A DNA stretch of 64,000 nt from Flavobacteriales bacterium (GTDB taxonomy: Bacteria > Bacteroidota > Bacteroidia > UBA10329). Of this stretch, positions 1-62,920 are shown in pieces. The position numbers and the translations under genes are program-made. The stretch covers positions 5,889-69,888 of the forward strand of contig JAGYJL010000006.1 of NCBI GenBank assembly GCA_018402015.1, in the 5' to 3' direction. Each line of letters begins with the position of its first letter. Positions within the stretch are counted from its first letter, which is position 1. The notes under the pieces are model-generated. The model was not told the origin of the DNA, did not search any database, and saw only the letters and a list, made by a program, of their open reading frames with translations.

Positions 1-478
1 TTGAAAAGCAATAGCCTTCTTTCGGAATTCCGATGAAGTTCTTGTCGATCTTTCCGCTGCTGTTCTCATCCTGATAAACGGCAATGGCGTATTCGCCATA
101 CTCTCTATCTGTTATCAGCGCGGTGAGCGTATTACCAACCGGAATGAACTTGTACTCTTTCAGTTGCGCTTCCAACTTTAGAAAACGTTCTTTCTTGTTG
201 TAGAGACCGACCATTACCGGAGCATCTGCCGATCTCAGGTTTTGTATAACCAGTGTCATCGGTTCACGGTTCGACTTTTTCGCATCCTTCGCTTTGCTCT
301 GTTTCTTCTCCTTACTCGGTTCTTTGCCTGCATCGGTTTCATTCGACTCGTCCTCATCAATGGTTTCGTAAACAATGGTGGTCGGGCCGTCATCGTCATC
401 CGCTTTTTTCTTTGCGCAATGCATCAGCGAAAGCGCAAGCGAGATATAAAGTAGCATGGCGGGAATACGTGTTCTCAT
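1..478 (-). CDS. DUF2141 domain lipoprotein (3' end runs off the window)
   Basis: An open minus-strand frame starts at ATG 478. It is absent from the ORF track because there is no stop in the window. It reads MRTRIPAMLLYISLALSLMHC (lipobox) ... LVIQNLRSADAPVMVGLYNKKERF ... YAIAVYQDENSSGKIDKNFIGIPKEGYCFS, which is DUF2141-like. There is an ATGA overlap with the stop of the upstream gene at 475. Confidence 0.7.
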   Translation of the reverse strand, partial: MRTRIPAMLLYISLALSLMHCAKKKADDDDGPTTIVYETIDEDESNETDAGKEPSKEKKQSKAKDAKKSNREPMTLVIQNLRSADAPVMVGLYNKKERFLKLEAQLKEYKFIPVGNTLTALITDREYGEYAIAVYQDENSSGKIDKNFIGIPKEGYCFS

Positions 479-1560
479 GAGTTGGTCTTTTTTGCCTTAT
501 CGGCAGTTGTAACTTCCGGTTCACCCATAAGAAAACCCCAAGGCTTCAAGTGGTCAAACAAGTCGAAGATGAGTTTGATGATGGCTACTAGCGGGATAGA
601 GAGAAACATGCCCGGAATGCCCCAGAGCATGCCACCCAAAATGACCGCAAACACCGAAACAAGCGCATTGAGCTGCACTTTGGAGCCGAGCACTTTGGGA
701 ACAATGATGTTGTTGTCTATAAACTGAATAAGACCATAAAGCAGTACCACATACAGCACGTAAATGGGCGGTTTTGTAACCAACGCGATGGCCGCAAAGA
801 GCAACATGGTCATCAATCCACCCAGGTAGGGGATAAGATTGAGCAATCCGCCAATGACGCCTAGAACAACCGCATATTCAATGCCCAACAAGAGCAGGCC
901 TGCGCAGTCGAGCACGGTTACGATGACGAATTGAATGAACAATGCAGATAGGTAGTTTTTGATAATTCCGGAAACATCCGAAACCACTTTGTCTATGCTT
1001 TCCATACTGGTGGTAGCAAACAGCCGATGAACGAATTGAAGCAGGTGCCTTTCGTAGAGCAGCATGAGGAACACGTAAACCGGAGTAAGGAACATGGTGG
1101 CCAAAACACCACTCATGGCAGTAAGTGTCACACCAATGGCGGCATTGCTGTCGTTCATCAGATCGTTCTTCGAATCGGTCATCCAGAGGTTCACCTTCCA
1201 TCTGCGAATGTGGAACTGTTCCGAGATCCAGCGAACGGCCTTATCCAGCAGGGCTTCAAGCTTGGTCATCAGTTCGGGCAGACCCGTATCCAACATATCA
1301 ATGCGCCAAGCAACGAATAGGAGCAAGGCTGCCATCAGTACCGAAGCCAAGGAAAGCACCACAGAAATGGCCACAAAGCGACTCATTCTCCACCGCTCCA
1401 AAAAACTGACAATGGGGTTGAGGAGAATGGTGATAATGGCTGCGTAGATAAGCGGGAGGATGATCTCCTGTCCGATGTATAAGATGTAAATGGATACGCA
1501 GAATCCGATGAGCAGGAATGTGGCCTTTGCGTAAAAGGGCAGCTTGATAGGCGGGTTCAT
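475..1560 (-). CDS. AI-2E family transporter (PerM/UPF0118 permease)
   Basis: This is a 361-aa polytopic membrane protein. Its C-terminal block LNLIPYLGG...FIDNNIIVPKVLGSKVQLNALVSVFAVILGGMLWGIPGMFLSIPL is typical of the AI-2E family. Confidence 0.85.
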   Translation of the reverse strand: MNPPIKLPFYAKATFLLIGFCVSIYILYIGQEIILPLIYAAIITILLNPIVSFLERWRMSRFVAISVVLSLASVLMAALLLFVAWRIDMLDTGLPELMTKLEALLDKAVRWISEQFHIRRWKVNLWMTDSKNDLMNDSNAAIGVTLTAMSGVLATMFLTPVYVFLMLLYERHLLQFVHRLFATTSMESIDKVVSDVSGIIKNYLSALFIQFVIVTVLDCAGLLLLGIEYAVVLGVIGGLLNLIPYLGGLMTMLLFAAIALVTKPPIYVLYVVLLYGLIQFIDNNIIVPKVLGSKVQLNALVSVFAVILGGMLWGIPGMFLSIPLVAIIKLIFDLFDHLKPWGFLMGEPEVTTADKAKKTNS

Positions 1561-1562
1561 TC

Positions 1563-1997
1563 CTAGTGTTCGGCAAGGATCTCTTCGTCAATATCCTCGG
1601 CTTCTTCCGCTTCCTCGTCAACTGGGGAACTTCTGAACAGATTGATGAATCCGAGGCCGATGGATCTTATCATCTCGGGGTTGTTGGTTATGACATTCGT
1701 AACCCCGAACATGAGCGCTGTGCCCATCAGTTTTCGGGCTGGGCTGTGCGTTTCTCCTTCGAAAAGTGATTTTGAAACATATCCGACCGCCATACCTACC
1801 GATGCGTTCATCAGGTCTTCCTTCAGGTCGCGCGAGTGAATGGCCTCTTTTACCGTGCTTTTGATGATGTTGATCGGTTGAATTCCTTCGTAAGCCACTA
1901 GAAATTCCTCTTTCAGAGAAACGCCATCTTGCTTCTGGGCCAATTCAAGGGCAACAATGGCTGCTCGTAATTCTGTTGACGATGTGATGTTTTGCAT
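1563..1997 (-). CDS. hypothetical protein, third gene of the YtxH/holin-like cluster
   Basis: ATG at 1997 gives 144 aa (MQNITSSTELRAAIVALELAQ...) with an acidic tail DEEAEEAEDIDEEILAEH. The 248-aa track ORF only extends upstream by reading through the palindromic repeat at 2028-2129. The stop lies 2 nt before the AI-2E start. Confidence 0.6.
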   Translation of the reverse strand: MQNITSSTELRAAIVALELAQKQDGVSLKEEFLVAYEGIQPINIIKSTVKEAIHSRDLKEDLMNASVGMAVGYVSKSLFEGETHSPARKLMGTALMFGVTNVITNNPEMIRSIGLGFINLFRSSPVDEEAEEAEDIDEEILAEH

Positions 1998-2027
1998 GGT
2001 TTTATCTCTATAAGGGGCTGTCTCAAA

Positions 2028-2129
2028 ATCCGTCATTGCGACCGTGAGGCACGAAACGGGAAGCAATCTCATGCAGATTCTGTGCTTGTTTCCGAAAGAT
2101 TGCTTCGGTCGTGCCTCCCTCGCAATGAC
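2028..2129. repeat. Intergenic palindromic element, family 1 copy A (CCGTCATTGCGA ... GAAGCAATCT // AGATTGCTTC ... TCGCAATGACGG)
   Basis: The left arm (2028-2067) and right arm (2095-2129) are imperfect reverse complements. The outer 12 bp and inner 10 bp are perfect. The same termini recur at 44789-44862. Confidence 0.75.
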
Positions 2130-2158
2130 GGGAGGACGGCTTTTGAGACAGTCCCGCA

Positions 2159-2542
2159 CTATGCAAGTGCTTCCTTTATGATGAGTTTGCTTATTGGCCC
2201 TTTGATCCATTTGCGGAGGAAAAAGTGAAGTACCAGACCTACCACGAGGTAGAATAGCGCCACGATGAAAAAGCCGTAGTACGCCTTGCCTAGCAAATCG
2301 CCAAGCCACAGCGCCACTCCAATATTGAAGACAATGGTGAAGAGCACCACCATTGCAGTGACGCTCAATACCGTTATCAACGAGGTGGCAACGATAGTTG
2401 TCGCCTCTAAGGATTTCAGCTTTGCGAGCTCGTAACTGATGCTGCCAAAGGTTTCGACCTTGCCATACAGTTTTTCGAATTCGCTGGCCTCTTGCTCCGT
2501 TTTCAAGCCATTAATCTTTTGGATGAATGGCCTTGGCAGCAT
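2159..2542 (-). CDS. phage holin family (Holin-X-like) small membrane protein
   Basis: This 127-aa protein has an N-terminal amphipathic region followed by two hydrophobic helices (TTIVATSLITVLSVTAMVVLFTIVF, YYGFFIVALFYLVVGLVLHFFL). It lies immediately downstream of ytxH, the usual Bacteroidota pairing. Confidence 0.6.
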   Translation of the reverse strand: MLPRPFIQKINGLKTEQEASEFEKLYGKVETFGSISYELAKLKSLEATTIVATSLITVLSVTAMVVLFTIVFNIGVALWLGDLLGKAYYGFFIVALFYLVVGLVLHFFLRKWIKGPISKLIIKEALA

Positions 2543-2797
2543 CGGTCAAAAGTTCTTCTGCCTTGGCCTGTCCGTTGTGGCTCACTTTCTGCGCCTCAGC
2601 CGTCATCTGCTCAAACTTCTCGGTCACACTTTCCATGAACTCATGGAATTTGTCTTCCAAACCTTCTGCATATTCGTTGCTCTTTTTCGAGATTTTCTTG
2701 CGCGTGTTCGAACCTTTGTCTGGTGCAAAGAGGATTCCCAAAGTGGCCCTGCGGCAGCTCCTGCCAATACGCCCAATAATATTTTACCTGTGTCCAT
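2511..2797 (-). pseudogene. YtxH domain protein, split by a 1-nt frameshift in a G/C run (2748-2750)
   Basis: ATG 2797 encodes MDTGKILLGVLAGAAAG. The frame is then lost, and the +1 frame continues ATLGILFAPDKGSNTRKKISKK...AEELLTDAAKAIHPKD (track ORF 2511-2741). One extra G in the GGG run would restore the canonical YtxH N-terminus. Confidence 0.75.
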
Positions 2798-2829
2798 AAT
2801 GCTGTTTTCTTTTAGTTGTTTGTTGGGGT

Positions 2830-2896
2830 AAAGTTCATGCCGCGCTACGCTGGTTTCTGTTACACAACGCTGTGAAAGAGTTACATCATTCACACA
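2830..2896 (-). promoter_or_regulatory. Tripartite island element, copy a (upstream of the ytxH operon)
   Basis: The minus strand reads TGTGTGAATGATGTAAC-N16-GTAAC-N22-GAACTTT. The element ends 32 nt before ATG 2797. Confidence 0.6.
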
Positions 2897-3145
2897 TTGG
2901 TTTGCGAAAAAGGGGAATAAGAAGAACGAAAAAAGGGAATAAGAAAAAAGTATGGAGGCACAGAAGCAGCCACAATCTATAATCGTTGTTCGCCAATCAA
3001 AACGCAAGAAAGCCCCCGTTTGGCGAGACTTTCTGAGCCCAGCTAGGATATTAGAACATGAAAGACAAACCCGCATAAGCAGAGTAGGTCTTAACATGTG
3101 CTCCATCAAAGCACGAGTTATGAATCTGCCTCAGTTGCTTTGCTG

Positions 3146-3760
3146 TCATCGCTGATGTCTAAAAAGGCCATAAACACCACGGAAACCGATACCCAAACGA
3201 AGGGTTCGAGAAGGATTAAGGCCAAAATCAACCCCCGCACCATAAGCGATTCCAATGTCGCCAGCTTTTACAACTACCAATGGCCTTACGGTTGTTCCGC
3301 TGGCGCTATCCGTAGTTTTTACTTCACCACCTGCACTGATTCCGATCTGAGGACCAACCACCAGATTTCCATTCACACGTCTCGATTTTCCTGTGTTGAG
3401 CGAGAAAAGCAGTGGAATGTTCACGTATCGCAGATTCACTCTGTGTTCCGTGTCCTGCTCCTTGTAGCGTTGCGAAACGGAATTGTAAATGATCTCGCCC
3501 TGCAAGCCGACATGTGGCGTGAAATTGACCCCCACAAATACACCAACGCCATAGCCGAAGGTTAGTTGGCCTTTGACGGATTCGCCAGCTGCGTTTCGCA
3601 TTTCAAAATTGCTGATGGTGGGCATGAAGCGCGCACCGATCTCTACCTTCTTGTTCTCCGGTGGCGTTGATCCATCCTGCGCTTTTGCAGTTCCTACCGA
3701 AACACCGAGCATACTTACCATTACCGTAGCAACCATTACGTTGCCTCTTAGCTTTTTCAT
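3146..3760 (-). CDS. outer membrane beta-barrel (porin-family) protein
   Basis: MKKLRGNVMVATVMVSMLGVSVGTAKAQ is a signal peptide. It is followed by alternating-hydrophobicity strands (GARFMPTISNFEM, LTFGYGVGVFVGVNF, GLQGEIIYNSV, YVNIPLLFSL, IGIAYGAGVDFGL). The start was chosen at ATG 3760. Confidence 0.7.
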   Translation of the reverse strand: MKKLRGNVMVATVMVSMLGVSVGTAKAQDGSTPPENKKVEIGARFMPTISNFEMRNAAGESVKGQLTFGYGVGVFVGVNFTPHVGLQGEIIYNSVSQRYKEQDTEHRVNLRYVNIPLLFSLNTGKSRRVNGNLVVGPQIGISAGGEVKTTDSASGTTVRPLVVVKAGDIGIAYGAGVDFGLNPSRTLRLGIGFRGVYGLFRHQR

Positions 3761-3782
3761 GTTTTCTTTTCTTATTGTTAAG

Positions 3783-3849
3783 CGAAGGTCGGTTGGGGCA
3801 AGAGCCACTTCGTTACACATGCCCGTCCTACTATTACATCATTCACACA
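3783..3849 (-). promoter_or_regulatory. Tripartite island element, copy b (upstream of the OM beta-barrel gene)
   Basis: The minus strand reads TGTGTGAATGATGTAAT-N16-GTAAC-N22-ACCTTCG. The element ends 22 nt before ATG 3760. Confidence 0.6.
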
Positions 3850-3867
3850 TTCTGAGAATGGGATCAT

Positions 3868-6282
3868 TTATATCATGATGTTCACCAACCCGGTATGCTT
3901 GGCCTTGCGCGCCAAGGCTGCAGTTGCCGATCTGCCGGCACGTTTACTGCGTTTATTATCACCAACGCTAAGTCGCGCCATGAGGTAACTCACAGTCGAT
4001 TCGGCACCTTGATTGAGGTTCACGTGGGTTTCTTCCAATCCATCGTAGCAACCACCTGTTCCGGGATTGTAAATGATCTGGTGGAGGTGGTTTTTCCCGA
4101 GGAACCAATTGAAGGCTGAAACCTCTTTTTCAAGGTATTTTTCATCGTGAAAGGCCTTGTAGAAGGCATCCAAGGCAAGAACCGTGTAAGCCACATCTAT
4201 GGGTTGCTCGCCACCCTTTATTATCGGCAGATAGCTCTCTTCCTTGTAAAGCCAGGTCTTGTTAGAAATGACCTGCATGTTGGTTCCGTTAAAGGTCTTT
4301 GAAAGGAGAAAGTCGAAGGATCTCTGTGCAATATCTCGGTACAGAAAATCGCCAGTTACCATCCATGCGCAAAGCATGGCTTCGGGCAAAACGCTGTTGG
4401 CGTAGGTCAGGTAAGCTTCAAACCAATGCCATTCTTCGGTTTCCTCGTGTCGGTACATCTGCACTAGGCGGTCGGCCAGTTTGCGCATCAATGGCCGATA
4501 ACTTGCATCGTTACCGGCCATGGTTCGATAGTACAATCCTTTCATAACAAACGCCATGGCGCGCGATGAGTGCATGCCGCTTACATTCTGCAATCCACGT
4601 TGCAGCAATTTATCAGCAGCTTTGGCCAGTTTTTTTGGCAACAGATGGCTCATCGAAACCAGATAACCCAAGGCCCAAATGGCGCGTCCATTGGCATCTT
4701 CAAGATTAGTGGTAGCATTCTGATCGGTGAATTCCTCCGCTTCATTCACATAATTGAGAAAGTAGCCCGATGGCTGCAAACAATATTGGATGAAGTTAAA
4801 GTAGGTCTGAATGTAAGCCACATCCGTTTGGTTGCCCGAGGTTTCAAAATGCTTACATGTGGCAATCAGGGCCCGTGCATTATCATCCAAGGTGTAACCA
4901 GAAGTAATGTCTGGACGGTCGATAACAGAGAACTGAATCATTCCGAAATCAGTGGTCAATCGTTTCATGTGATCCAGATTGATAACCGGCAAGCTGTATT
5001 GCAATGGTTTGCCATCTGGAAGAAGGTCTTTGAACAACCTGGCGTGTGCAATGGCCGAATTCTGCCATGCGGTAGATGCCATGCGATGCCGTCCGTTCGA
5101 ACTCATGCTATCCGTCAATTCAGAATTGCTGAGAAGTTGGTTGACAGCCCGTGCCAATTGCTGCGAATCGTCAAAATCGAAGATGATGCCTACATCGTCT
5201 CCCAACACTTCCTGCGCATGCGGAATAGGCGTTGAAACAATCGGACAGCCAGAGCTGATGGCATACGAGAAAGTGCCGCTTACGGCCTGCTCGGGATCGT
5301 TTGAAGTGAACAGATAAATGTCTGTGGCCTGTAGGTATTCGAGCAGTTCGGGAAGTGGCAGAAATCGATTAACGAAGCGTGTGTGCTGCTCCAAATTCAA
5401 GTTCTTGATCAGCGTTTCCAGCTTTTGGCGGTAACGCTCTCCTTCGTTTTTCACTACCGATGGATGCGTTATTCCAATGATCAGGAACATCACATCGGGG
5501 TTCTCAAAAATGATAGAAGGCAGGGCTTTGAGCGTGGTTTCAATGCTTTTGCCAGCACTCAACAGCCCGAATGTGGAAAGCACGTGCTTGCCGGTCAGTC
5601 CGTATTTGGCTTTCAACTCTGATTTATTGGCGTGTGGTAGGAGGTGGGTGCCATGCGAAATGATGCTGATCTTCTCTAGATCCACGTCATATTCTTCATG
5701 TAGCGTTTGAGCCGATGACCGTGTCATCACGACCACCGAAGCGGCCGCTGCAGCAATGCTTTGCACATTGGCTTTCAATGCGCTGTTCGGGTCTGGCAAT
5801 ATGGTGTGAAAAACCACCACAACAGGCTGATGAATAGCTTCTATCAGCGCCACAAAACCCTCTTCATTCTTGGCGAAAAAACCAAACTCGTGCTGCAACA
5901 CCACCAGATCGATGGCTGCATTGGCATTGATCTTTTCGGCCAATTGATAAAAGGAATGCTTATGATCGGTGTTGAGTGTGTAATGAACCTTTCCCGTGTA
6001 TTCGTGCTGTTCGGCATCGTTCTGCAGTGCGCAAATACTGAACTTGAATGATTGCTTGAATTTGTTGGTCAATGCGCGTATCAGATCCTGCGTATAGGTA
6101 GCAATACCGCACTCTCTTGGCGGATAAGATGTGATGAACAGAATCTCTGGCAAGGGCACGGCCATGTTCCTAGCCTTCTTGTTCTTCATCGGCCAACTTC
6201 TTCGCGTTCCATTTTCCGAAAAATGGGATGAATCTGACTCTTTATAAAGTTTTACTGCTGTGCTTGTCTCTGGTGTTCTCAT
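3868..6282 (-). CDS. GT4-family glycosyltransferase fused to a ~370-aa C-terminal domain of unknown function
   Basis: The N-terminal half has GT-B/GT4 features (LFITSYPPRECGIATYTQDL; ...DIYLFTSNDPEQAVSGTFSYAISSGCPIVSTP). The C-terminal half (from ~DHMKRLTTDFGMIQFS...YTLDDNARALI) has no GT motif. ATG 6282 overlaps the stop of the upstream GH130 remnant (ATGA). Alternative starts are at 6189 and 6165. Confidence 0.75.
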   Translation of the reverse strand: MRTPETSTAVKLYKESDSSHFSENGTRRSWPMKNKKARNMAVPLPEILFITSYPPRECGIATYTQDLIRALTNKFKQSFKFSICALQNDAEQHEYTGKVHYTLNTDHKHSFYQLAEKINANAAIDLVVLQHEFGFFAKNEEGFVALIEAIHQPVVVVFHTILPDPNSALKANVQSIAAAAASVVVMTRSSAQTLHEEYDVDLEKISIISHGTHLLPHANKSELKAKYGLTGKHVLSTFGLLSAGKSIETTLKALPSIIFENPDVMFLIIGITHPSVVKNEGERYRQKLETLIKNLNLEQHTRFVNRFLPLPELLEYLQATDIYLFTSNDPEQAVSGTFSYAISSGCPIVSTPIPHAQEVLGDDVGIIFDFDDSQQLARAVNQLLSNSELTDSMSSNGRHRMASTAWQNSAIAHARLFKDLLPDGKPLQYSLPVINLDHMKRLTTDFGMIQFSVIDRPDITSGYTLDDNARALIATCKHFETSGNQTDVAYIQTYFNFIQYCLQPSGYFLNYVNEAEEFTDQNATTNLEDANGRAIWALGYLVSMSHLLPKKLAKAADKLLQRGLQNVSGMHSSRAMAFVMKGLYYRTMAGNDASYRPLMRKLADRLVQMYRHEETEEWHWFEAYLTYANSVLPEAMLCAWMVTGDFLYRDIAQRSFDFLLSKTFNGTNMQVISNKTWLYKEESYLPIIKGGEQPIDVAYTVLALDAFYKAFHDEKYLEKEVSAFNWFLGKNHLHQIIYNPGTGGCYDGLEETHVNLNQGAESTVSYLMARLSVGDNKRSKRAGRSATAALARKAKHTGLVNIMI

Positions 6283-7305
6283 ATCGGTTTCTTGTTGGTC
6301 AATAGTTCATTTATCAATTCGGCAAGGTTGAGGGTTGCGCAGGCAATCTGCTCGTCTGCGGCACCGTAGTAGATGTAAAGCGTCTCGTCAAACACCACCG
6401 CCCCCGTTGGAAAACAGACGTTGTTCACTTCGCCCACCAGTTCCCAATCCAGTTCGGGTTTGAAGAAGCGGATAGGGCAAGCGTGCAATTTCCTTTCGGG
6501 ATCGTCAAGGTCGAGGAGGGGCACAGGCCGTGTACACATATCCCTTTGGTGTATCGTGCACACCATGATAGATGATGAGCCAGCCATGTTCGGTCTCAAT
6601 GGGCGGACAGCCACCACCAATGTAACACCTCGTGTCGGTGCTTCGATGTAAGCACGATATGCTTTCATCGAAATTCAAAAAGTAATCCTGCCAGAATTCG
6701 GGCGTCAGGTTTTTGAGTTCGCGCACCGATACGAACTGAATATCTGGCCGAATACGATGCAAGAAGCACAGATTGCCGTTTATTCTACGTGGGAAATCAC
6801 GTTCTTATTCCAGACGAACTTGTTGAGGTTCTGTCCTTCACTGCCTTGCCACGGCGATTGTAGCGCATGTATTTTTCGTTGATGGCAGTCTTACAACTTA
6901 TCGAATGAATGAATTCGTGGTACGAGATCTTCCGGACGATGGGCCCGCGTTTTTCCCAATGGATCGGGTCGGTAGATGTGGCCAACGCGCCAAGGCATTC
7001 ACACCGTCATAGGCGGTGTAGGTAGGAATAGTAGAGACCGTTTATCTCGGTAATGCGCGGGTCCTCCAACCTTGCGCTTCGTACGGCGAGGGAACAGCAA
7101 GGGGAGGTGTCGCGCCTTTCGGCCACGGTTTCGGGTCCGTTCAACACGCAATATCAATAGTTGAATAATTGCCTTTTCCTACCGCCCGATAGAATAGATG
7201 AACACTGTCTGCTACACGAATAGCTGCTGGATTGAGCACACCCTCGCTCTCAAATTCCAGTGTTCGCTTACTCAGAATAATGCCTCTCTTATCAACCGCT
7301 ATCAT
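6279..7305 (-). pseudogene. GH130-family glycosidase/phosphorylase, decayed by multiple frameshifts
   Basis: GH130-like segments are spread over all three minus-strand frames. They are MIAVDKRGIILSKRTLEFESEGVLNPAAIRVADSVHLFYRAVGKGNYSTI; YCVLNGPETVAERRDTSP; SPYEAQG / LEDPRITEINGLYY; PTYTAYDGVNALA; LATSTDPIHWEKRGPIV; HRIRPDIQFV...PPIETEHGWLIIYHGV; and LLDLDDPERKL...CFPTGAVVFDETLYIYYGAADEQIACATL. At least five frame changes are needed to join them. Confidence 0.8.
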
Positions 7306-7353
7306 GAAGTTCCGTTTTTCGGTCCGTCATTCTCCAACAGACCTTCTGTTGTT

Positions 7354-7420
7354 CAAAGGTCTCTATGGGGAGGTGGCTTTGCCTTACACAATGGGAGGGA
7401 ATAGTTACATCATTCACACA
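7354..7420 (-). promoter_or_regulatory. Tripartite island element, copy c (upstream of the GH130 remnant / GT4 operon)
   Basis: The minus strand reads TGTGTGAATGATGTAAC-N16-GTAAG-N22-ACCTTTG. The element ends 23-48 nt before the candidate starts at 7330 and 7305. Confidence 0.6.
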
Positions 7421-7432
7421 TCGGTTGCATAC

Positions 7433-7466
7433 AAAAAAAACACCCCGACCCAATGGTCGAGGTGTT
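7433..7466 (-). terminator. Rho-independent terminator of the CHRD-like lipoprotein gene
   Basis: On the minus strand, ACACCTCGACC-attg-GGTCGGGGTGT is followed by TTTTTTTT, 25 nt after the stop at 7491. Confidence 0.8.
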
Positions 7467-7490
7467 TCTGAGGGCTATGGAAAAAGAACC

Positions 7491-8309
7491 TTAGTTGGTT
7501 CCGATGTTTCCTTGGCAGATTACATTTGCCATAAGCAAGGCTGATTCGTGAATGGCCAGGTAGCCATCATACACCAACATATTATCGTAATTAACCGGTG
7601 TTTGGTCATCCAACACAAGAAGGTTGGTGTAGCTTTTACCAGTCGCTCCATCAACCGGATTTAGCGTTTTTACCGATGGGCCTCCGCCTACTGTTTCTAC
7701 CGAGCCAATGTGAATGATGGCCGGATGTGTTCCGCCAGCAAGGGTTCCTGTCAAGGAGATCGTAACCAGCGTTTTGCCATTCTTACGTTTTTGAAACAAG
7801 GCTGTTCCCGCAACGCCTGATGCGTTTGTTACATCCAGATTATAGTTTTTACTTGTAGTTGTAAGCGCATTTCCACCAATGTCGGTCTGGCCAATGATGG
7901 TGCCTAGATCGAGGGCGCTCTGATGCACATTCAGATAACCGTTGTAAACGAGCAATTGATTGTAGTTGATGGAGCTATTGTTGTCAAGCTTGGTCACTTG
8001 CGTAGAACTGTATCCATTCACCACTGGATTAAGCGACAAAGTGATGGAACCGCCTTCTACAGCCGAGTTCATGTGAATGTGTGATGGGTGGCTGTCGGAA
8101 TCGCCTCCAACAAGGGTAACATCAATGGTGGTAACCGTTGCGCTGGTCTCCGTAAAGGTCACCGTTCCAGTAATTCCGAGCTGATCCTTAACCTGAATGT
8201 CATAGACGGTTTTGTTCAGTTCTGGGCTTTCGTCTTTGATGCAGCCGACTCCCAAAATAACTGCGAATGCGACACTGGTACTTAGCAGAATGCTATTGGT
8301 AATTTTCAT
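7491..8309 (-). CDS. lipoprotein with two tandem CHRD-like domains
   Basis: The lipobox is AVILGVGC. There are two internal repeats, each carrying an H-x2-I-H ... GG ... LNPV ... Y(N/D)GYL(N/A)(V/I)H(Q/E)SAL pattern (HPSHIHMNSAVEGGSITLSLNPV / HPAIIHIGSVETVGGGPSVKTLNPV). Confidence 0.55.
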   Translation of the reverse strand: MKITNSILLSTSVAFAVILGVGCIKDESPELNKTVYDIQVKDQLGITGTVTFTETSATVTTIDVTLVGGDSDSHPSHIHMNSAVEGGSITLSLNPVVNGYSSTQVTKLDNNSSINYNQLLVYNGYLNVHQSALDLGTIIGQTDIGGNALTTTSKNYNLDVTNASGVAGTALFQKRKNGKTLVTISLTGTLAGGTHPAIIHIGSVETVGGGPSVKTLNPVDGATGKSYTNLLVLDDQTPVNYDNMLVYDGYLAIHESALLMANVICQGNIGTN

Positions 8310-8346
8310 TTTGTTTTAGTTGAAGTGTGAAAGAATTTCCACGCTG

Positions 8347-8413
8347 CAAAGGTTTTCGCCTTCTTCTATTTGAATGTTACACCCTCCGAACTAATAGTTA
8401 CATGATTCCCACA
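8347..8413 (-). promoter_or_regulatory. Tripartite island element, copy d (upstream of the CHRD-like lipoprotein, divergent from araC-family gene)
   Basis: The minus strand reads TGTGGGAATCATGTAAC-N16-GTAAC-N22-ACCTTTG. The element ends 37 nt before ATG 8309. Its distal end lies 95 nt from the regulator start at 8508. Confidence 0.6.
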
Positions 8414-8507
8414 TTTGGGAAGTCGGACAACAAATCATGGCTAACTTTACATAGCGCGCCTACCTCAACACCCTACAGTTAATGCATTCGTAGGTCGCTT
8501 CAAAAGC

Positions 8508-9068
8508 ATGAAGATCTACATCAAATACATGGTGAGCTTGCGCTGCAAGATGATGGTGAAGGCCGAACTGAAAAAGCTCGGGTTGCACTACGTTATTGTA
8601 GATCTGGGCATGGTAGAGGTGCTTGAAGACATCACTGCCGAGCAACGTTGTCAGCTAAAGAAGAACCTCGCCAAATCGGGTCTTGAGTTGCTGGATGACC
8701 AACAAGCCATTCTGGTAGAGAAGATCAAAGGAGTGATCACCGAAATGATCCATTATTCGGATGAAGTGCCTAAGGTGAATTACTCCGATTTCATCAGCGA
8801 AAAATTGGGCTACGATTACACGTATCTGGCCAACGTGTTCTCCGAACTAAAGGGCATCACCATTCAACAGTTCATCATCATCAACAAGATCGAACGGGCC
8901 AAGGAGCTGATCCTTTACGATCAGCTCAATCTGACCGAGACCGCTTTTCTGCTTCACTACAGCAGCGTGGCGCATCTCTCTAACCAGTTCAAGAAGGTCA
9001 CGGGCCTCACACCATCCTATTTCAAGGAACTTGGCAAGAAGCGCAAAGGCAACCTCGAAAACCTGTGA
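8508..9068 (+). CDS. AraC/XylS-family transcriptional regulator (small, with ~80-aa N-terminal alpha/beta domain)
   Basis: The C-terminal part has two HTH units (YSDFISEKLGYDYTYLANVFSELKGITIQQFIIINKIERAKELI...LTETAFLLHYSSVAHLSNQFKKVTGLTPSYF). The N-terminal part (MVSLRCKMMVKAELKKLGLHYVIVDLGMVEV) is ferredoxin/HMA-like but has no CxxC. Confidence 0.85.
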   Translation: MKIYIKYMVSLRCKMMVKAELKKLGLHYVIVDLGMVEVLEDITAEQRCQLKKNLAKSGLELLDDQQAILVEKIKGVITEMIHYSDEVPKVNYSDFISEKLGYDYTYLANVFSELKGITIQQFIIINKIERAKELILYDQLNLTETAFLLHYSSVAHLSNQFKKVTGLTPSYFKELGKKRKGNLENL

Positions 9069-9128
9069 TATGTGTAACTCTTTTACATAGTTGTGTAAGG
9101 AATCTGGCAATGCACCGCCTCACCTTTG
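9062..9128 (+). promoter_or_regulatory. Tripartite island element, copy f (upstream of csbD; overlaps araC-family stop codon)
   Basis: The sequence is CCTGTGATATGTGTAAC-N16-GTAAG-N22-ACCTTTG. The distal box is degenerate (11/17), but the spacing is identical. The element ends 38 nt before ATG 9167. Confidence 0.5.
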
Positions 9129-9166
9129 TATAGGAGAAAATCATTTCCACCATTAAGACCAATAAG

Positions 9167-9352
9167 ATGAATAAGACAGAAGTAAAAGGAAACATCAACG
9201 AGTTGAAAGGCAAGCTGAAACAACGATTTGCCGTGCTGACAGACAATGATCTGATGCATAAAGAAGGTAAGGAAGACGAAATGTGGGGGAGAATCCAAAA
9301 GAAGGTGGGCAAAACAAAAGAGCAATTACTTGAGCTTCTCGGAGCCGACTGA
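9167..9352 (+). CDS. CsbD-family general stress protein
   Basis: This 61-aa protein ([53 protein letters not shown]) shows the classic CsbD pattern. Confidence 0.85.
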
Positions 9353-9390
9353 TCAGCTGCTTACAATTCAAAACACTAAAACCAAAAAAA

Positions 9391-9861
9391 ATGAAAAAGA
9401 ACCTATTTAGCCTAGCAATGGCTACCATCTTCATAGCAAGTGGTATGCTTACGGGCTGCGACACAACATCGGCCGATAAAGTGAATAAAGCCGAGGAAAA
9501 CGTGAAGGATGCTGAAGAAAATCTGAAGGAAGCCAAAGAAGGAAAAGCTGCGGCAGTCAAGAAAGAAGCAACAGATGCCGAATGGAAGGTCTTTAAGGAA
9601 GATTCGGATGCAAAGATCTCTAAGAACAATGAGAGGATTGCTGAAATGAAGGATAAAATGAAGACTTCCGGAAAAACGATGGGTAAGATCTATGCAGGAC
9701 GCATTGAGAACATCGAAAAGAAGAATGTTGAACTGAAAACCCGATTAGACAATTTCGATAAGGAACAGACCGATTGGGATTCATTCAAGCGCGAGTTCGA
9801 CCACGACATGGGTGAGATCGGAAACGCTTTCAAAGAATTGGGAACCGATAGCTCTAAATAA
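9391..9861 (+). CDS. hypothetical lipoprotein, Lys/Glu-rich helical
   Basis: The lipobox is SGMLTGC. The rest is highly charged and predicted to be coiled/helical. It lies 38 nt downstream of csbD, with a terminator after it. Confidence 0.6.
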   Translation: MKKNLFSLAMATIFIASGMLTGCDTTSADKVNKAEENVKDAEENLKEAKEGKAAAVKKEATDAEWKVFKEDSDAKISKNNERIAEMKDKMKTSGKTMGKIYAGRIENIEKKNVELKTRLDNFDKEQTDWDSFKREFDHDMGEIGNAFKELGTDSSK

Positions 9862-9880
9862 GCTATGTGGCACCCAGTGG

Positions 9881-9913
9881 AAAAGGCAGACCCCACCAGG
9901 TCTGCCTTTTTCT
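9881..9913 (+). terminator. Rho-independent terminator after csbD-lipoprotein unit
   Basis: The hairpin is AGGCAGACC-ccacca-GGTCTGCCT followed by TTTTTC. Confidence 0.75.
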
Positions 9914-9950
9914 TTCCCTCAATGTATGAAACAGTAAAACAAAAACGACA

Positions 9951-10307
9951 ATGGACACAAAGGATACAGGTGAAGTAGAAAAGTCAATGGCACTCATTAC
10001 GATAGAGATCATTGAGTATGTTCCAAACTCGGTTGTTATCAAGACCATTCTGAAGAAATCGACAGGCAATATCAGTGTCATGTCGTTTGATGCAGGCGAA
10101 GGACTGACCGAGAAAACCACTCCGTTTGACACCTTTGCCCAGATCATTGAAGGTAAGGCCAACATTATTATCAGTGGTAAATCTCACCTGTTGGAAACAG
10201 GCCAGTCAATTGTTATACCCGCACATGCTTCAAACAGGATAGAGCCCAATGGTCGGTTCAAAATGATCATGACGGTGATCAAAAGTGGCTTTGAAGACAT
10301 GATGTAA
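9951..10307 (+). CDS. cupin domain protein (paralog 1)
   Basis: This 118-aa protein has a single cupin barrel. It shares the blocks VIPAH, RFKM and IKSGFE(D/E)M with the ORF at 10591-10938. Confidence 0.7.
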   Translation: MDTKDTGEVEKSMALITIEIIEYVPNSVVIKTILKKSTGNISVMSFDAGEGLTEKTTPFDTFAQIIEGKANIIISGKSHLLETGQSIVIPAHASNRIEPNGRFKMIMTVIKSGFEDMM

Positions 10308-10349
10308 GCTGTAAATGTGGTTTTAACCGCTTGAGCGGAATGCCGAAAA

Positions 10350-10416
10350 TGTGTGAATAATGTAACGATGAGATAAATGGATGTAACGAATCGTTAGATC
10401 CTTAGCCGCACCTTTG
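10350..10416 (+). promoter_or_regulatory. Tripartite island element, copy e (upstream of small Lys-rich ORF + cupin 2)
   Basis: The sequence is TGTGTGAATAATGTAAC-N16-GTAAC-N22-ACCTTTG. The element ends 54 nt before ATG 10471. Confidence 0.6.
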
Positions 10417-10470: not shown

Positions 10471-10587
10471 ATGTCAAAAGGAAAAGAAGGAAAAGCCAAG
10501 TCAGACAAGTCTGCACCGCAAAAGAATTTGAAGGAAAAACGAGCAGATAAAGCGTCTAAACGTAAAGACAAACAACTGCAAGATTGA
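10471..10587 (+). CDS. 38-aa lysine-rich hydrophilic small protein (below ORF-track cutoff)
   Basis: The ORF runs from ATG 10471 to TGA 10587 and encodes MSKGKEGKAKSDKSAPQKNLKEKRADKASKRKDKQLQD. Its stop is 3 nt before the cupin-2 ATG at 10591, and copy e of the island element lies upstream. Confidence 0.45.
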   Translation: MSKGKEGKAKSDKSAPQKNLKEKRADKASKRKDKQLQD

Positions 10588-10590
10588 TTC

Positions 10591-10938
10591 ATGCTTTATC
10601 CAGAACTTGATAATTCTATGGCTCATGACCTGTGCGATATTGTTGCATATCGGTCGGGGCAAATAGTTTCCAAGACCATTGCGCTAAAACCCACTGGCAC
10701 CATTACGGTATTTGCCTTTGCAGAAGGTGAGGAAACATTCGCCTCCATTTCGGCCTTCGACAACCTTATTCATGTGATCGATGGCATTGCTTCGGTGCGG
10801 ATGAATGAGAGAAGCATAGATGTAAGGATCGGGCAAGTGCTCGTAATTCCTGCCCATACCATCAACAAGTTCGTATCCAAAGTGCGCTTCAAAATGCTTT
10901 CAACCACTATTAAAAGTGGATTTGAAGAGATGATCTGA
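10591..10938 (+). CDS. cupin domain protein (paralog 2)
   Basis: This 115-aa protein contains GQVLVIPAHTINKFVSKVRFKMLSTTIKSGFEEMI, paralogous to the ORF at 9951-10307. Confidence 0.7.
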   Translation: MLYPELDNSMAHDLCDIVAYRSGQIVSKTIALKPTGTITVFAFAEGEETFASISAFDNLIHVIDGIASVRMNERSIDVRIGQVLVIPAHTINKFVSKVRFKMLSTTIKSGFEEMI

Positions 10939-16900: not shown

Positions 16901-17079
16901 AAAAATTGAAACATAATTGATGAGTGTTACGCACTGATCTACCGTTTGGTACTGGGCGTTTTCCCAAGCTACGCAAGGGGTCAGGCTTTCCGCTTTATCT
17001 TTTTTTTTCCGCCCACAGGCTTTCCAGACTCAAAAAAGGATGCCGCTTCAATCCTTAACGCGAGGTGCCGTTGTTACTT

Positions 17080-62009: not shown

Positions 62010-62920
62010 TGAAAAAAATCCTCGTCACAGGCTCTAACGGACTGCTGGGTCAGAAACTGGTTTACAAACTCAAAGCGCGCCCAGATGTGGAGTTGGTAGC
62101 AACAGCACGTGGCGCAAATCGATTGCTCGACCAGACCGGTTATACATTCTATCAACTCGATATTGAAAATCGGGAGAATGTGGATGAAGTGATTGACGCG
62201 GTAAAACCCGACCACATCATTCACACAGCGGCAATGACACAGGTAGACGATTGCGAGTTGGATCATGCCGCATGCGACAGAGCCAATGTTGATGCCGTTC
62301 AATATATGGTCAATGCAGCCGAGCGGAACAACTGTCATTTCGTGCATATCTCCACCGATTTCATTTTCAATGGAGAAGAAGGACCTTATGATGAAGAAGG
62401 CGTTGCCGACCCGCTAAGCTATTACGGAAATGCCAAGTGGAAAGGAGAACTCATTGTTCAGCAAAGCAAACTGAAATGGGCCATTCTTAGAACCGTACTG
62501 GTTTATGGCATAGTGGATAATATGAGCCGTTCCAATATTGTACTGTGGGCAAAAGGCGCGCTTGAAAAAGGAGAACCCATCAATGTGGTGGACGATCAAT
62601 TCCGTTCTCCAACGCTGGCAGAAGACCTTGCCGATGGCTGCATTCTGGCGGTAGATAAACAGGCAACAGGCATCTATAACATCTCTGGGAAAGATCAATT
62701 ATCCATTATCGATCTTGTTCGCACGGTTGCCGACTACTATGGCTTGGATAAAAGCCTCATCAACCCCGTTTCGTCCAAAACCTTGAATCAGCCTGCCAAA
62801 CGTCCGCCCGTTACAGGCTTCATACTCGATAAGGCCAGACGCGAACTTGGCTACAACCCACACAGCTTTACAGAAGGCATTGCACTAATGGAAAAGCAAT
62901 TGGCCGAAATGAAACAGTAA
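62009..62920 (+). CDS. SDR-family NAD(P)-dependent reductase, RmlD (dTDP-4-dehydrorhamnose reductase)-like
   Basis: It has VTGSNGLLG, a YGNAKW catalytic Y-x3-K, and the motif DQFRSPT typical of RmlD-type proteins. The start is GTG 62009. Confidence 0.7.
   Translation: MKKILVTGSNGLLGQKLVYKLKARPDVELVATARGANRLLDQTGYTFYQLDIENRENVDEVIDAVKPDHIIHTAAMTQVDDCELDHAACDRANVDAVQYMVNAAERNNCHFVHISTDFIFNGEEGPYDEEGVADPLSYYGNAKWKGELIVQQSKLKWAILRTVLVYGIVDNMSRSNIVLWAKGALEKGEPINVVDDQFRSPTLAEDLADGCILAVDKQATGIYNISGKDQLSIIDLVRTVADYYGLDKSLINPVSSKTLNQPAKRPPVTGFILDKARRELGYNPHSFTEGIALMEKQLAEMKQ

Follow-up and report, generated by a model that had tools for sequence, protein, structure and literature searches.

At class II promoters, AraC/XylS-family activators such as XylS (at Pm) and AraC (at araI1-I2) act on a pair of direct repeats spaced at a 21-bp period. 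Each repeat is a bipartite site that accommodates both helix-turn-helix motifs of one C-terminal DNA-binding domain (HTH_18), and the proximal one abuts or overlaps the -35 region, the -35 element itself being poor. The same layout is encountered in a 64-kb stretch of contig JAGYJL010000006.1 from a Flavobacteriales bacterium (assembly GCA_018402015.1), referred to here as the window, in which six copies of a tripartite element, consisting of a distal box 1, a proximal box 2 and a box 3 held at spacings of 16 and 22 nt, accompany the gene of a 186-aa AraC-family protein (8508-9068); the overlap with the -35 region applies here if box 3 is a -7 box. In contrast to the XylS and AraC systems, the core promoter would be of the Bacteroidota -33/-7 and not the -35/-10 type, the N-terminal domain of the protein is a small HMA-like ferredoxin fold and not a cupin (AraC_binding), both recognition elements are conserved only in the distal site, and the putatively bound targets are stress and envelope proteins instead of a catabolic pathway.

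Likeness to MarA, SoxS and Rob comprises the AraC-family domain, an asymmetric box of roughly 20 bp whose distance from the core promoter and orientation toward it are fixed, and a dispersed, here putative, stress regulon, and Foldseek matches MarA and SoxS structures to the protein from the window. However, MarA and SoxS bind a single box as monomers, whereas two boxes at an invariant 21-bp period are found here, and motif sequence, target genes and sensor domain all differ from the MarA/SoxS/Rob group. In content (CsbD, YtxH, Usp, small hydrophilic and envelope proteins), the set of genes is comparable to the regulons of sigma-B in Bacillus and Listeria, of the EcfG-NepR-PhyR system in Alphaproteobacteria and of RpoS. 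Unlike in these sigma-driven stress regulons, control appears to be exerted by a one-component activator together with the housekeeping sigma factor, and no partner-switching genes were seen. The PM2 promoters of Bacteroides thetaiotaomicron (-30/-10) likewise form a non-canonical Bacteroidota promoter class of stress and stationary-phase genes (PMC7366714, PMC12596196), but PM2 is near-palindromic with TGTT at -10, is attributed to extracytoplasmic function (ECF) sigma factors and shows neither the TGTGA/TGTAAC direct repeats nor a retained TTTG -7 box.

As judged from sequence comparison, the six elements are probably activator-dependent promoters of a conserved regulon under control of the 8508-9068 protein, and the set of sites, regulator and targets looks like an undescribed stress regulon. 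The corresponding features are given below, with scores from a position weight matrix derived from other genomes.

2830-2896, minus strand: site a, upstream of the ytxH operon, 25 bits
3783-3849, minus strand: site b, upstream of the outer-membrane beta-barrel gene, 43.5 bits
7354-7420, minus strand: site c, upstream of a frameshifted GH130 gene and a GT4 gene, 42 bits
8347-8413, minus strand: site d, upstream of the lipoprotein gene 7491-8309 and divergent from the regulator gene, 43.7 bits
8508-9068, plus strand: candidate activator, 186-aa AraC-family protein (Pfam, AlphaFold2, Foldseek)
9062-9128, plus strand: site f, upstream of csbD, 49.7 bits
10350-10416, plus strand: site e, upstream of a 38-aa Lys-rich open reading frame (ORF) and a 115-aa ORF, 43.4 bits

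Coordinates and strands of all six sites are as given in the initial annotation, and the sites align without gaps when read toward the downstream gene. The 17-mer TGTGTGAATGATGTAAC at up to three mismatches has six matches in the window against 0.22 expected, a number reached in 0 of 100 shuffles, and five of these matches are sites a to e. The distal box of site f is degenerate because it overlaps the stop codon (9066-9068) of the AraC-family gene. With the pattern GTAAC-N16-GTAAS-N22-RMMYTTB at up to one mismatch, five matches compare with 0.02 expected, site b needing two mismatches. Box 3 of site a is atypical, reading GAACTTT, or AACTTTA if a spacing of 23 is allowed. The distal box is longer than first described, covering about 20 bp (AAtgTGTGAAtnATGTAACt), and the proximal box can be refined to (T)TgTGTAAC. 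Box 3 ends 30 (a), 22 (b), 48 (c), 37 (d), 54 (e) and 38 nt (f) ahead of the start codon, in agreement with the 22-54 nt proposed earlier, the real start of the gene behind site b being the ATG at 3760 and not the longest-ORF start at 3820. Sites a and c directly follow terminator-like hairpins, one at 3007-3034 after the barrel gene of unit b with site a beginning just downstream, the other at 7436-7469 closing the preceding unit with site c beginning 16 nt after it; hence, each of the two sites opens its own transcription unit. A match at 62211-62227 (minus strand), considered as a seventh site, is intragenic and has neither box 2 nor box 3, and was discarded as a chance match.

For comparison with other genomes, two sets of loci were used. 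The regulator-anchored set comprises 80 loci (1.26 Mb) from named genomes, fetched with the 186-aa protein and labelled as Cytophagales, Flavobacteriales, Chitinophagales, Saprospiraceae, Bacteroidales, Balneolaceae, Ignavibacteria and Calditrichota, whereas the pattern-anchored set, obtained by scanning metagenome contigs for the exact pattern, comprises at least 120 loci (719 kb). In most of the regulator-anchored loci, a simple regular expression is enough to detect all three boxes at unchanged spacing. The position weight matrix was built from 55 sites of these loci, none of them from the window, and applied at a threshold of 8 bits. It gives 183 matches in the regulator-anchored loci and at least 217 in the pattern-anchored loci, against none in the reversed sequences of either set, so that at least about 400 copies in about 200 loci of genomes and metagenomes are found outside the window. 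Within the window, sites a to f score between 25 and 50 bits and nothing else in the 64 kb reaches 8 bits, with no match in the reversed window either, in line with the earlier statement that no further full copy is present. The exact pattern has no match in 2.9 million viral contigs. The initial annotation had placed the element in an island of about 11 kb; all six sites of the window do lie there, but the element is not a local peculiarity, as it is dispersed across classes of Bacteroidota and also occurs in metagenome-assembled genomes (MAGs) labelled Balneolaceae, Ignavibacteria and Calditrichota. Besides, two loci labelled Brevundimonas vancanneytii (L022) and Agrobacterium sp. (L071) carry a Bacteroidota-type regulator together with the element, and these bins are probably mislabelled or contaminated.

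The spacers of 16 and 22 nt, already noted as invariant in the window, keep their length across the about 400 copies, while their sequence varies. When box 1 alone is used as an anchor, GTAA[CG] occupies offset 16 in 48 of 83 cases, with practically no occurrence at any other offset, and box 3 occupies offset 43 in 55 of 83. The consensus of 343 distinct sites not overlapping the regulator gene reads AA-tg-TGTGA-At-n-A-TGTAAC-t ... tT-r-TGTAAC-ac ... c-A-yC-TTTG-t, with inflated columns wherever the search pattern required a base. TGTAAC stands at motif positions 12-17 and 33-38 (position 1 being the first T of TGTGTGAAT) in the six window sites and the about 400 others, which extends to other genomes the previously reported pair of similarly oriented boxes with a 21-bp period, equivalent to two helical turns. 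Box 3, nAnnTTTG, is a partial match to the Bacteroidota -7 box TAnnTTTG, with A at 93%, each T of the following TT at 99%, then T at 86% and G at 74%, percentages that are inflated because columns A61 and T64-G67 were required in pattern-selected sites. Its first position is C in 53% and T in only 20% of the sites, and positions 38-40, where the -33 TTG would be expected about 19 bp upstream of a -7 box, read C/a/c. In MAGs labelled Calditrichota or Balneolaceae, albeit a small sample, boxes 1 and 2 are unchanged and box 3 differs (TATAAC-like, CATTTTGATAC). This is suggestive, being expected if box 3 serves the housekeeping polymerase of the respective host. In three Balneolaceae-labelled loci (L014, L020 and L031), a stretch of some 40 nt in the leader behind box 3 (tgtggaaat.aat.ccac…ctctccc.taagtatggga) is kept between paralogous units and across the three MAGs and may represent a conserved element of the 5' untranslated region (UTR).

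Element and regulator gene are physically tied, corroborating the earlier proposal of the 8508-9068 protein as candidate regulator, as far as can be deduced from gene linkage. At least one site is present in 76 of the 80 orthologue loci. In 40 loci, the TGTGA of the site contains the TGA stop codon of the regulator gene, as at site f, and in 19 more a site follows within 200 bp downstream of the gene; 133 of 154 downstream sites are oriented in the same way as the regulator gene. Where the overlap exists, around locus position 10555 in the orthologue loci (L002-L081) and at 9062-9068 in the window, the last codons of the gene plus TGA (…E-N-L/M-stop) form part of the distal box AAyrTGTGA, and the C-terminus of the protein and its putative binding site are consequently co-constrained. 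Conversely, a regulator homologue with 45-91% identity is encoded in 20 of the at least 120 loci selected by the DNA pattern alone. Represented in 17 of these loci, the regulator is the most recurrent family among ORFs of at least 100 aa, and no sigma factor or other transcription-factor family appears among the top 16 recurrent families.

The protein itself can be assigned to the AraC/XylS family, as its predicted structure shows a C-terminal domain of about 100 aa with two helix-turn-helix motifs. Pfam returns HTH_18 (E = 1.2e-14) and HTH_AraC (E = 8.5e-12), PDB profiles match as well, and Foldseek matches the DNA-binding domain to AraT, MarA, SoxS, Rob and AraC. In the AlphaFold2 model (predicted local distance difference test score, pLDDT, 85.7), a beta-alpha-beta-beta-alpha-beta N-domain (residues 2-62) is followed by a linker helix and a seven-helix AraC-type DNA-binding domain. 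The N-domain is thus not the cupin (AraC_binding) classically found in the family. A cupin is unnecessary for AraC-family membership, and MarA is devoid of one. Foldseek weakly matches the N-domain to the copper chaperone CopZ (E = 0.078), while Pfam HMA is found at E = 0.18 in one relative and not at all in the window protein; since the sequence support for HMA is weak, the domain is termed HMA-like only. It is almost confined to the architecture of about 186 aa (1274 representative clusters). A library protein of 1043 aa (P0181) contains ten repeats matching residues 5-45 of the N-domain, an architecture out of the ordinary. In the clade of the window protein, a loop motif MVSLRC with Cys13 is invariant. 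Three divergent metagenome homologues (L086, L140 and L173; 45-55% identity) show MVCxRC instead, i.e., the full HMA-type MxCxxC, which from sequence hints at a metal- or thiol-sensing origin of the N-domain. NCBIfam gives only generic DNA-binding-domain matches far below cut-off and no specific model for the regulator, and names in the source records are generic.

Regulator orthologues in other classes and phyla share 72-82% identity, compared with about 45-50% for homologues of the type IX secretion sortase PorU, also encoded in the window (Bacteroidia- and Sphingobacteriia-labelled matches), and such conservation across classes with the DNA motif kept alongside is uncommon for a transcription factor. 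The 32 orthologues compared show no variation in either predicted recognition helix, and the second one (YSSVAHLSNQFKK) hardly varies even at 45% overall identity, in parallel with the invariant DNA boxes. Taken together, conservation of regulator and motif suggests an old, strongly constrained circuit. Autoregulation was considered and rejected, as the upstream regions of 79 regulator genes (78 orthologues plus that of the window) have no motif in common and contain no element; only extra regulator paralogues lie downstream of a site.

The element shows a promoter-like placement across these loci. Of 402 sites, no more than 4% fall within open frames of 150 aa or longer, compared to 66% of random positions, the remaining 96% being intergenic, and an ATG-started ORF follows within 200 nt in 159 of 185 sites, mostly at 20-60 nt. 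Scanning loci from other genomes with a fixed-spacer matrix, much as had been recommended for the six window sites, returned intergenic, gene-oriented sites beside recurring genes of stress type. After clustering of 362 downstream ORFs and Pfam analysis of the cluster representatives, the following families were obtained.

CsbD: 76 sites
Big_5/ice-binding-like lipoproteins, including 7491-8309 of the window: 38 sites
38-aa Lys-rich mini-protein: 21 sites
Cupins: 15 sites
DUF5670: 13 sites
C-terminally anchored protein of about 107 aa: 11 sites
Secreted protein of about 180 aa: 9 sites
OMP_b-brl_2: 8 sites
MlaE: 8 sites
Regulator paralogues: 7 sites
YtxH: 7 sites
Band_7: 6 sites
Usp: 4 sites
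YceI, DUF6600, DUF4382, PAS-domain kinases and response regulators: 3 sites each

Downstream of its regulator gene, Reichenbachiella ulvae carries genes for a fatty-acid desaturase, DUF5670, OmpA, Band_7, a GH130-GT4 pair and a Big_5/ice-binding protein, with four matrix matches ahead of some of these. The GH130-GT4 pair of the window thus represents a conserved member. Overlap with sets of the sigma-B and EcfG type is given by CsbD, YtxH, Usp, the sll1863-like lipoprotein and the 38-aa Lys-rich protein, so that by analogy the content resembles general-stress sets with a cold and envelope flavour, and from this content we infer the trigger.

The type of mechanism is a known one, i.e., an AraC/XylS-type activator with tandem sites. 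We infer from the geometry and from family precedent which protein binds, where transcription starts, whether activation or repression results and which condition is inducing. In the transcription-start map of Flavobacterium psychrophilum, the TAnnTTTG -7 box occupies -12 to -5 (PMC9723704), and the start is accordingly placed near position 72, some 5 nt downstream of the G that ends box 3. This box (cAyCTTTG, positions 60-67) would then be a weakened sigma-A -7 element with C for the first T of TAnnTTTG, while the proximal TGTAAC at about -39 to -34 would displace the -33 TTG. Further upstream, the distal TGTAAC would span roughly -60 to -55 and TGTGA roughly -69 to -65, both being part of the 20-bp box at about -72 to -54 and representing two recognition elements 9-10 bp apart, which one AraC-type domain with its two helix-turn-helix motifs would contact. 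The distal and the proximal site, separated by two helical turns, may each be bound by one copy of the 186-aa protein, and the copy nearer the core promoter would touch and recruit RNA polymerase, as is the case with AraC, XylS, RhaS and MelR at class II promoters. The HMA-like N-domain with the invariant Cys of MVSLRC probably receives the signal, and the output would be small hydrophilic and envelope proteins of general-stress, osmotic, cold or desiccation type.

Fixed spacing, regulator linkage and recurrent genes favour the activator-dependent promoter with AraC/XylS-type direct repeats and a weakened -7 box that had been proposed for the window. Several observations, however, weigh against it. 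At the proximal site, positions 24-28, which are equivalent to the first recognition element, are not conserved, and occupancy by a second regulator copy is for this reason an assumption. The centre distance of about 9.5 bp between TGTGA and TGTAAC is slightly short compared to the 10.5-11 bp in MarA and XylS sites. Moreover, the matrix was built and partly tested on the same regulator-anchored loci (window, reversed controls and viral scan being independent), and taxon labels of MAGs are not fully reliable. The linkage is one between the regulator and members of the regulon beside it, where the regulator could itself be cargo. A further point concerns sigma factors. GTAAC-N16-GTAAC equals the usual -35/-10 spacing of ECF promoters and the TGTAAC pair resembles an ECF pair, so that distal TGTAAC as -35 and proximal (T)GTAAC as -10, with a start within the 22-nt spacer and box 3 in the 5' UTR, constitute the most serious rival. 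In its favour are also the sigma-driven general-stress regulons of other bacteria and the similarity of TGTAAC to the -35 element of Bacillus sigma-X. The non-canonical -30/-10 motif of stress and stationary-phase genes in B. thetaiotaomicron is likewise attributed to ECF sigma factors, but PM2 with its near-palindromic sequence is a different motif (PMC7366714, PMC12596196). This ECF alternative had already been raised in the initial annotation, and the 16-nt spacing indeed fits. Yet, the -10 candidate is invariably TGTAA (T at 99% before G) and not the CGT typical of ECF promoters, the conserved TGTGA about 9 bp upstream of the presumed -35 and the conserved box 3 at a fixed 22 nt are left unexplained, and no sigma or anti-sigma gene recurs, neither in the top 16 families of the pattern-anchored loci nor among downstream genes nor beside the regulator in two annotated neighbourhoods, scans in which a distant sigma gene would lie outside. 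An ECF promoter is therefore disfavoured and unlikely. The second alternative once considered, a CRP/FNR half-site in the distal box, is not borne out, as this box is non-palindromic and lacks a conserved partner half-site; TGTGA plus TGTAAC rather fit one AraC domain with two helix-turn-helix motifs.

Quite unlikely is also that another protein binds the TGTAAC repeats, for example a LytTR-type response regulator, with the AraC gene being just a conserved neighbour or member of the regulon. LytTR sites, which are 9-bp direct repeats with a 21-bp period upstream of the promoter, would suit the geometry, response regulators and PAS-domain kinases are found downstream of the element at three loci each, and linkage alone is no proof of binding. 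However, the LytTR consensus is a poor description of the repeat unit seen here, and neither LytTR nor any other transcription-factor family recurs in the pattern-anchored loci, where the AraC-family protein tops the list. Furthermore, every second orthologue locus has the stop codon of the AraC-family gene within the distal box, and the very strong conservation of both recognition helices of the protein goes along with the invariance of the boxes. The sign of regulation bears on a variant in which the AraC-family protein represses by occluding the -33 region until a signal releases it. Some members of the family do repress, and the proximal box covers the position at which RNA polymerase would contact -33, but the promoters are without -33 TTG, the avoidance of the consensus T at the first -7 position is a signature of promoters needing help rather than of strong ones kept in check, and class II activation classically employs direct repeats arranged in tandem up to -35, rendering repression very unlikely. 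Location in 5' regions and a length of about 67 nt could also be reconciled with a structured RNA leader, a mobile or duplicated repeat or chance similarity. Against the leader, the window sites have no Rfam match, the mean folding-energy z-score over 80 copies is +0.28 and the RNAalifold consensus is empty; unconserved spacers argue against duplicated or mobile sequence, and chance is excluded by shuffles and reversed controls, making this group of explanations extremely improbable.

With activator-dependent promoters under the AraC-family protein as preferred reading, a wider significance can be considered. To our knowledge, Bacteroidota are without the well-known stress sigma factors, and the literature searched contains no account of a general stress response in this phylum. 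The circuit may be the missing general-stress circuit of the phylum. More tentatively, and possible rather than probable, element and regulator might be the master switch of the general stress response in most free-living Bacteroidota and neighbouring lineages of the Fibrobacterota-Chlorobiota-Bacteroidota (FCB) superphylum, in which a strongly conserved one-component AraC-family activator with an HMA-derived thiol- or metal-sensing domain would act on crippled housekeeping promoters with no alternative sigma factor. If true, this switch would fill the place that RpoS, sigma-B and EcfG have in other phyla. Neither the motif nor the regulator subfamily nor any CsbD/YtxH-type regulon of Bacteroidota turned up in full-text literature searches, which is not proof of absence and accords with the earlier remark that no described Bacteroidota regulon has this element; the promoter motifs SM1-6 of F. 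psychrophilum and PM2 of B. thetaiotaomicron differ from it (PMC9723704, PMC7366714, PMC12596196). A searchable DNA motif, a named candidate regulator and a recurrent target list are now at hand, allowing regulon prediction in many environmental Bacteroidota genomes, and the rigid three-box geometry offers a clean system for studying activator action at the unusual -33/-7 promoters of this phylum.

Judged from PorU, whose nearest named relatives are Flavobacteriales MAGs, and from the presence of a Flavo-1 RNA, the window stems from an uncultured member of Bacteroidota, probably of Flavobacteriales. The genes served by the six sites in the window are the following.

2-2799, minus strand: unit a, ytxH (2511-2799), holin-X-like gene (2159-2542), hypothetical gene (1563-1997), AI-2E transporter gene (475-1560) and DUF2141 gene (2-478, running past the window edge), assigned by Pfam
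3146-3760, minus strand: unit b, OMP_b-brl_2 outer-membrane beta-barrel (Pfam, E = 1.3e-17)
3868-7305, minus strand: unit c, GH130 homologue (6279-7305) and 804-aa GT4 glycosyltransferase (3868-6282), assigned by Pfam
7491-8309, minus strand: unit d, 272-aa lipoprotein clustering with the Big_5/ice-binding-like lipoprotein group
9167-9861, plus strand: unit f, csbD (9167-9352, Pfam CsbD) and sll1863-like lipoprotein gene (9391-9861)
10471-10938, plus strand: unit e, 38-aa Lys-rich mini-protein (10471-10587) and 115-aa ORF (10591-10938)

Compared to the gene list drawn up initially, ytxH, holin-like, AI-2E, DUF2141, outer-membrane barrel, GH130/GT4 and csbD assignments are retained, whereas two labels could not be confirmed. 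The protein 7491-8309, formerly regarded as CHRD-like, groups with Big_5/ice-binding-like lipoproteins, a label derived from Pfam analysis of a cluster representative, its own Pfam match being a weak Sod_Cu. The 115-aa ORF 10591-10938, formerly a cupin, has no Pfam or NCBIfam match. The lipoprotein 9391-9861 reaches 34.4 bits with NCBIfam sll1863_fam, against a cut-off of 35. After the unit f genes, a hairpin with a T-run can be read from the sequence at about 9886-9915, just upstream of a cupin gene (9951-10307) that is located between units f and e and has no element of its own.

Two of the genes are broken. The ytxH gene is split by a one-base frameshift near 2750 (2741-2760, minus strand; all-frame translation), its start MDTGKILLGVLAGAAAG being in one frame and the remainder (ATLGILFAPDKGSNTRKK...) in another, owing either to a sequencing error or to recent pseudogene formation. 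The GH130 homologue (6279-7305, minus strand) is broken across three frames according to tblastn with the R. ulvae GH130 protein and to Pfam on one fragment, and the GT4 gene downstream is intact. Both breaks together point to an assembly prone to errors or, alternatively, to partial decay of the regulon. A further frameshift, supposed in the barrel gene near 3146, is unsupported, the Pfam match being essentially complete. Past the barrel stop, a short open stretch (3058-3145, minus strand) ends with a barrel-like C-terminus (…YSAYAGLSFMF) and may be the remnant of an older gene end. Between two unit a genes, a 142-bp imperfect inverted repeat (2014-2155) whose arms of 21 and 12 nt flank a centre of some 78 nt is present in the window as a single copy and looks like a small palindromic intergenic element. 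Finally, a Flavo-1 RNA is located at 16975-17066 on the minus strand, with a score of 49.7 bits, above the Rfam gathering threshold.

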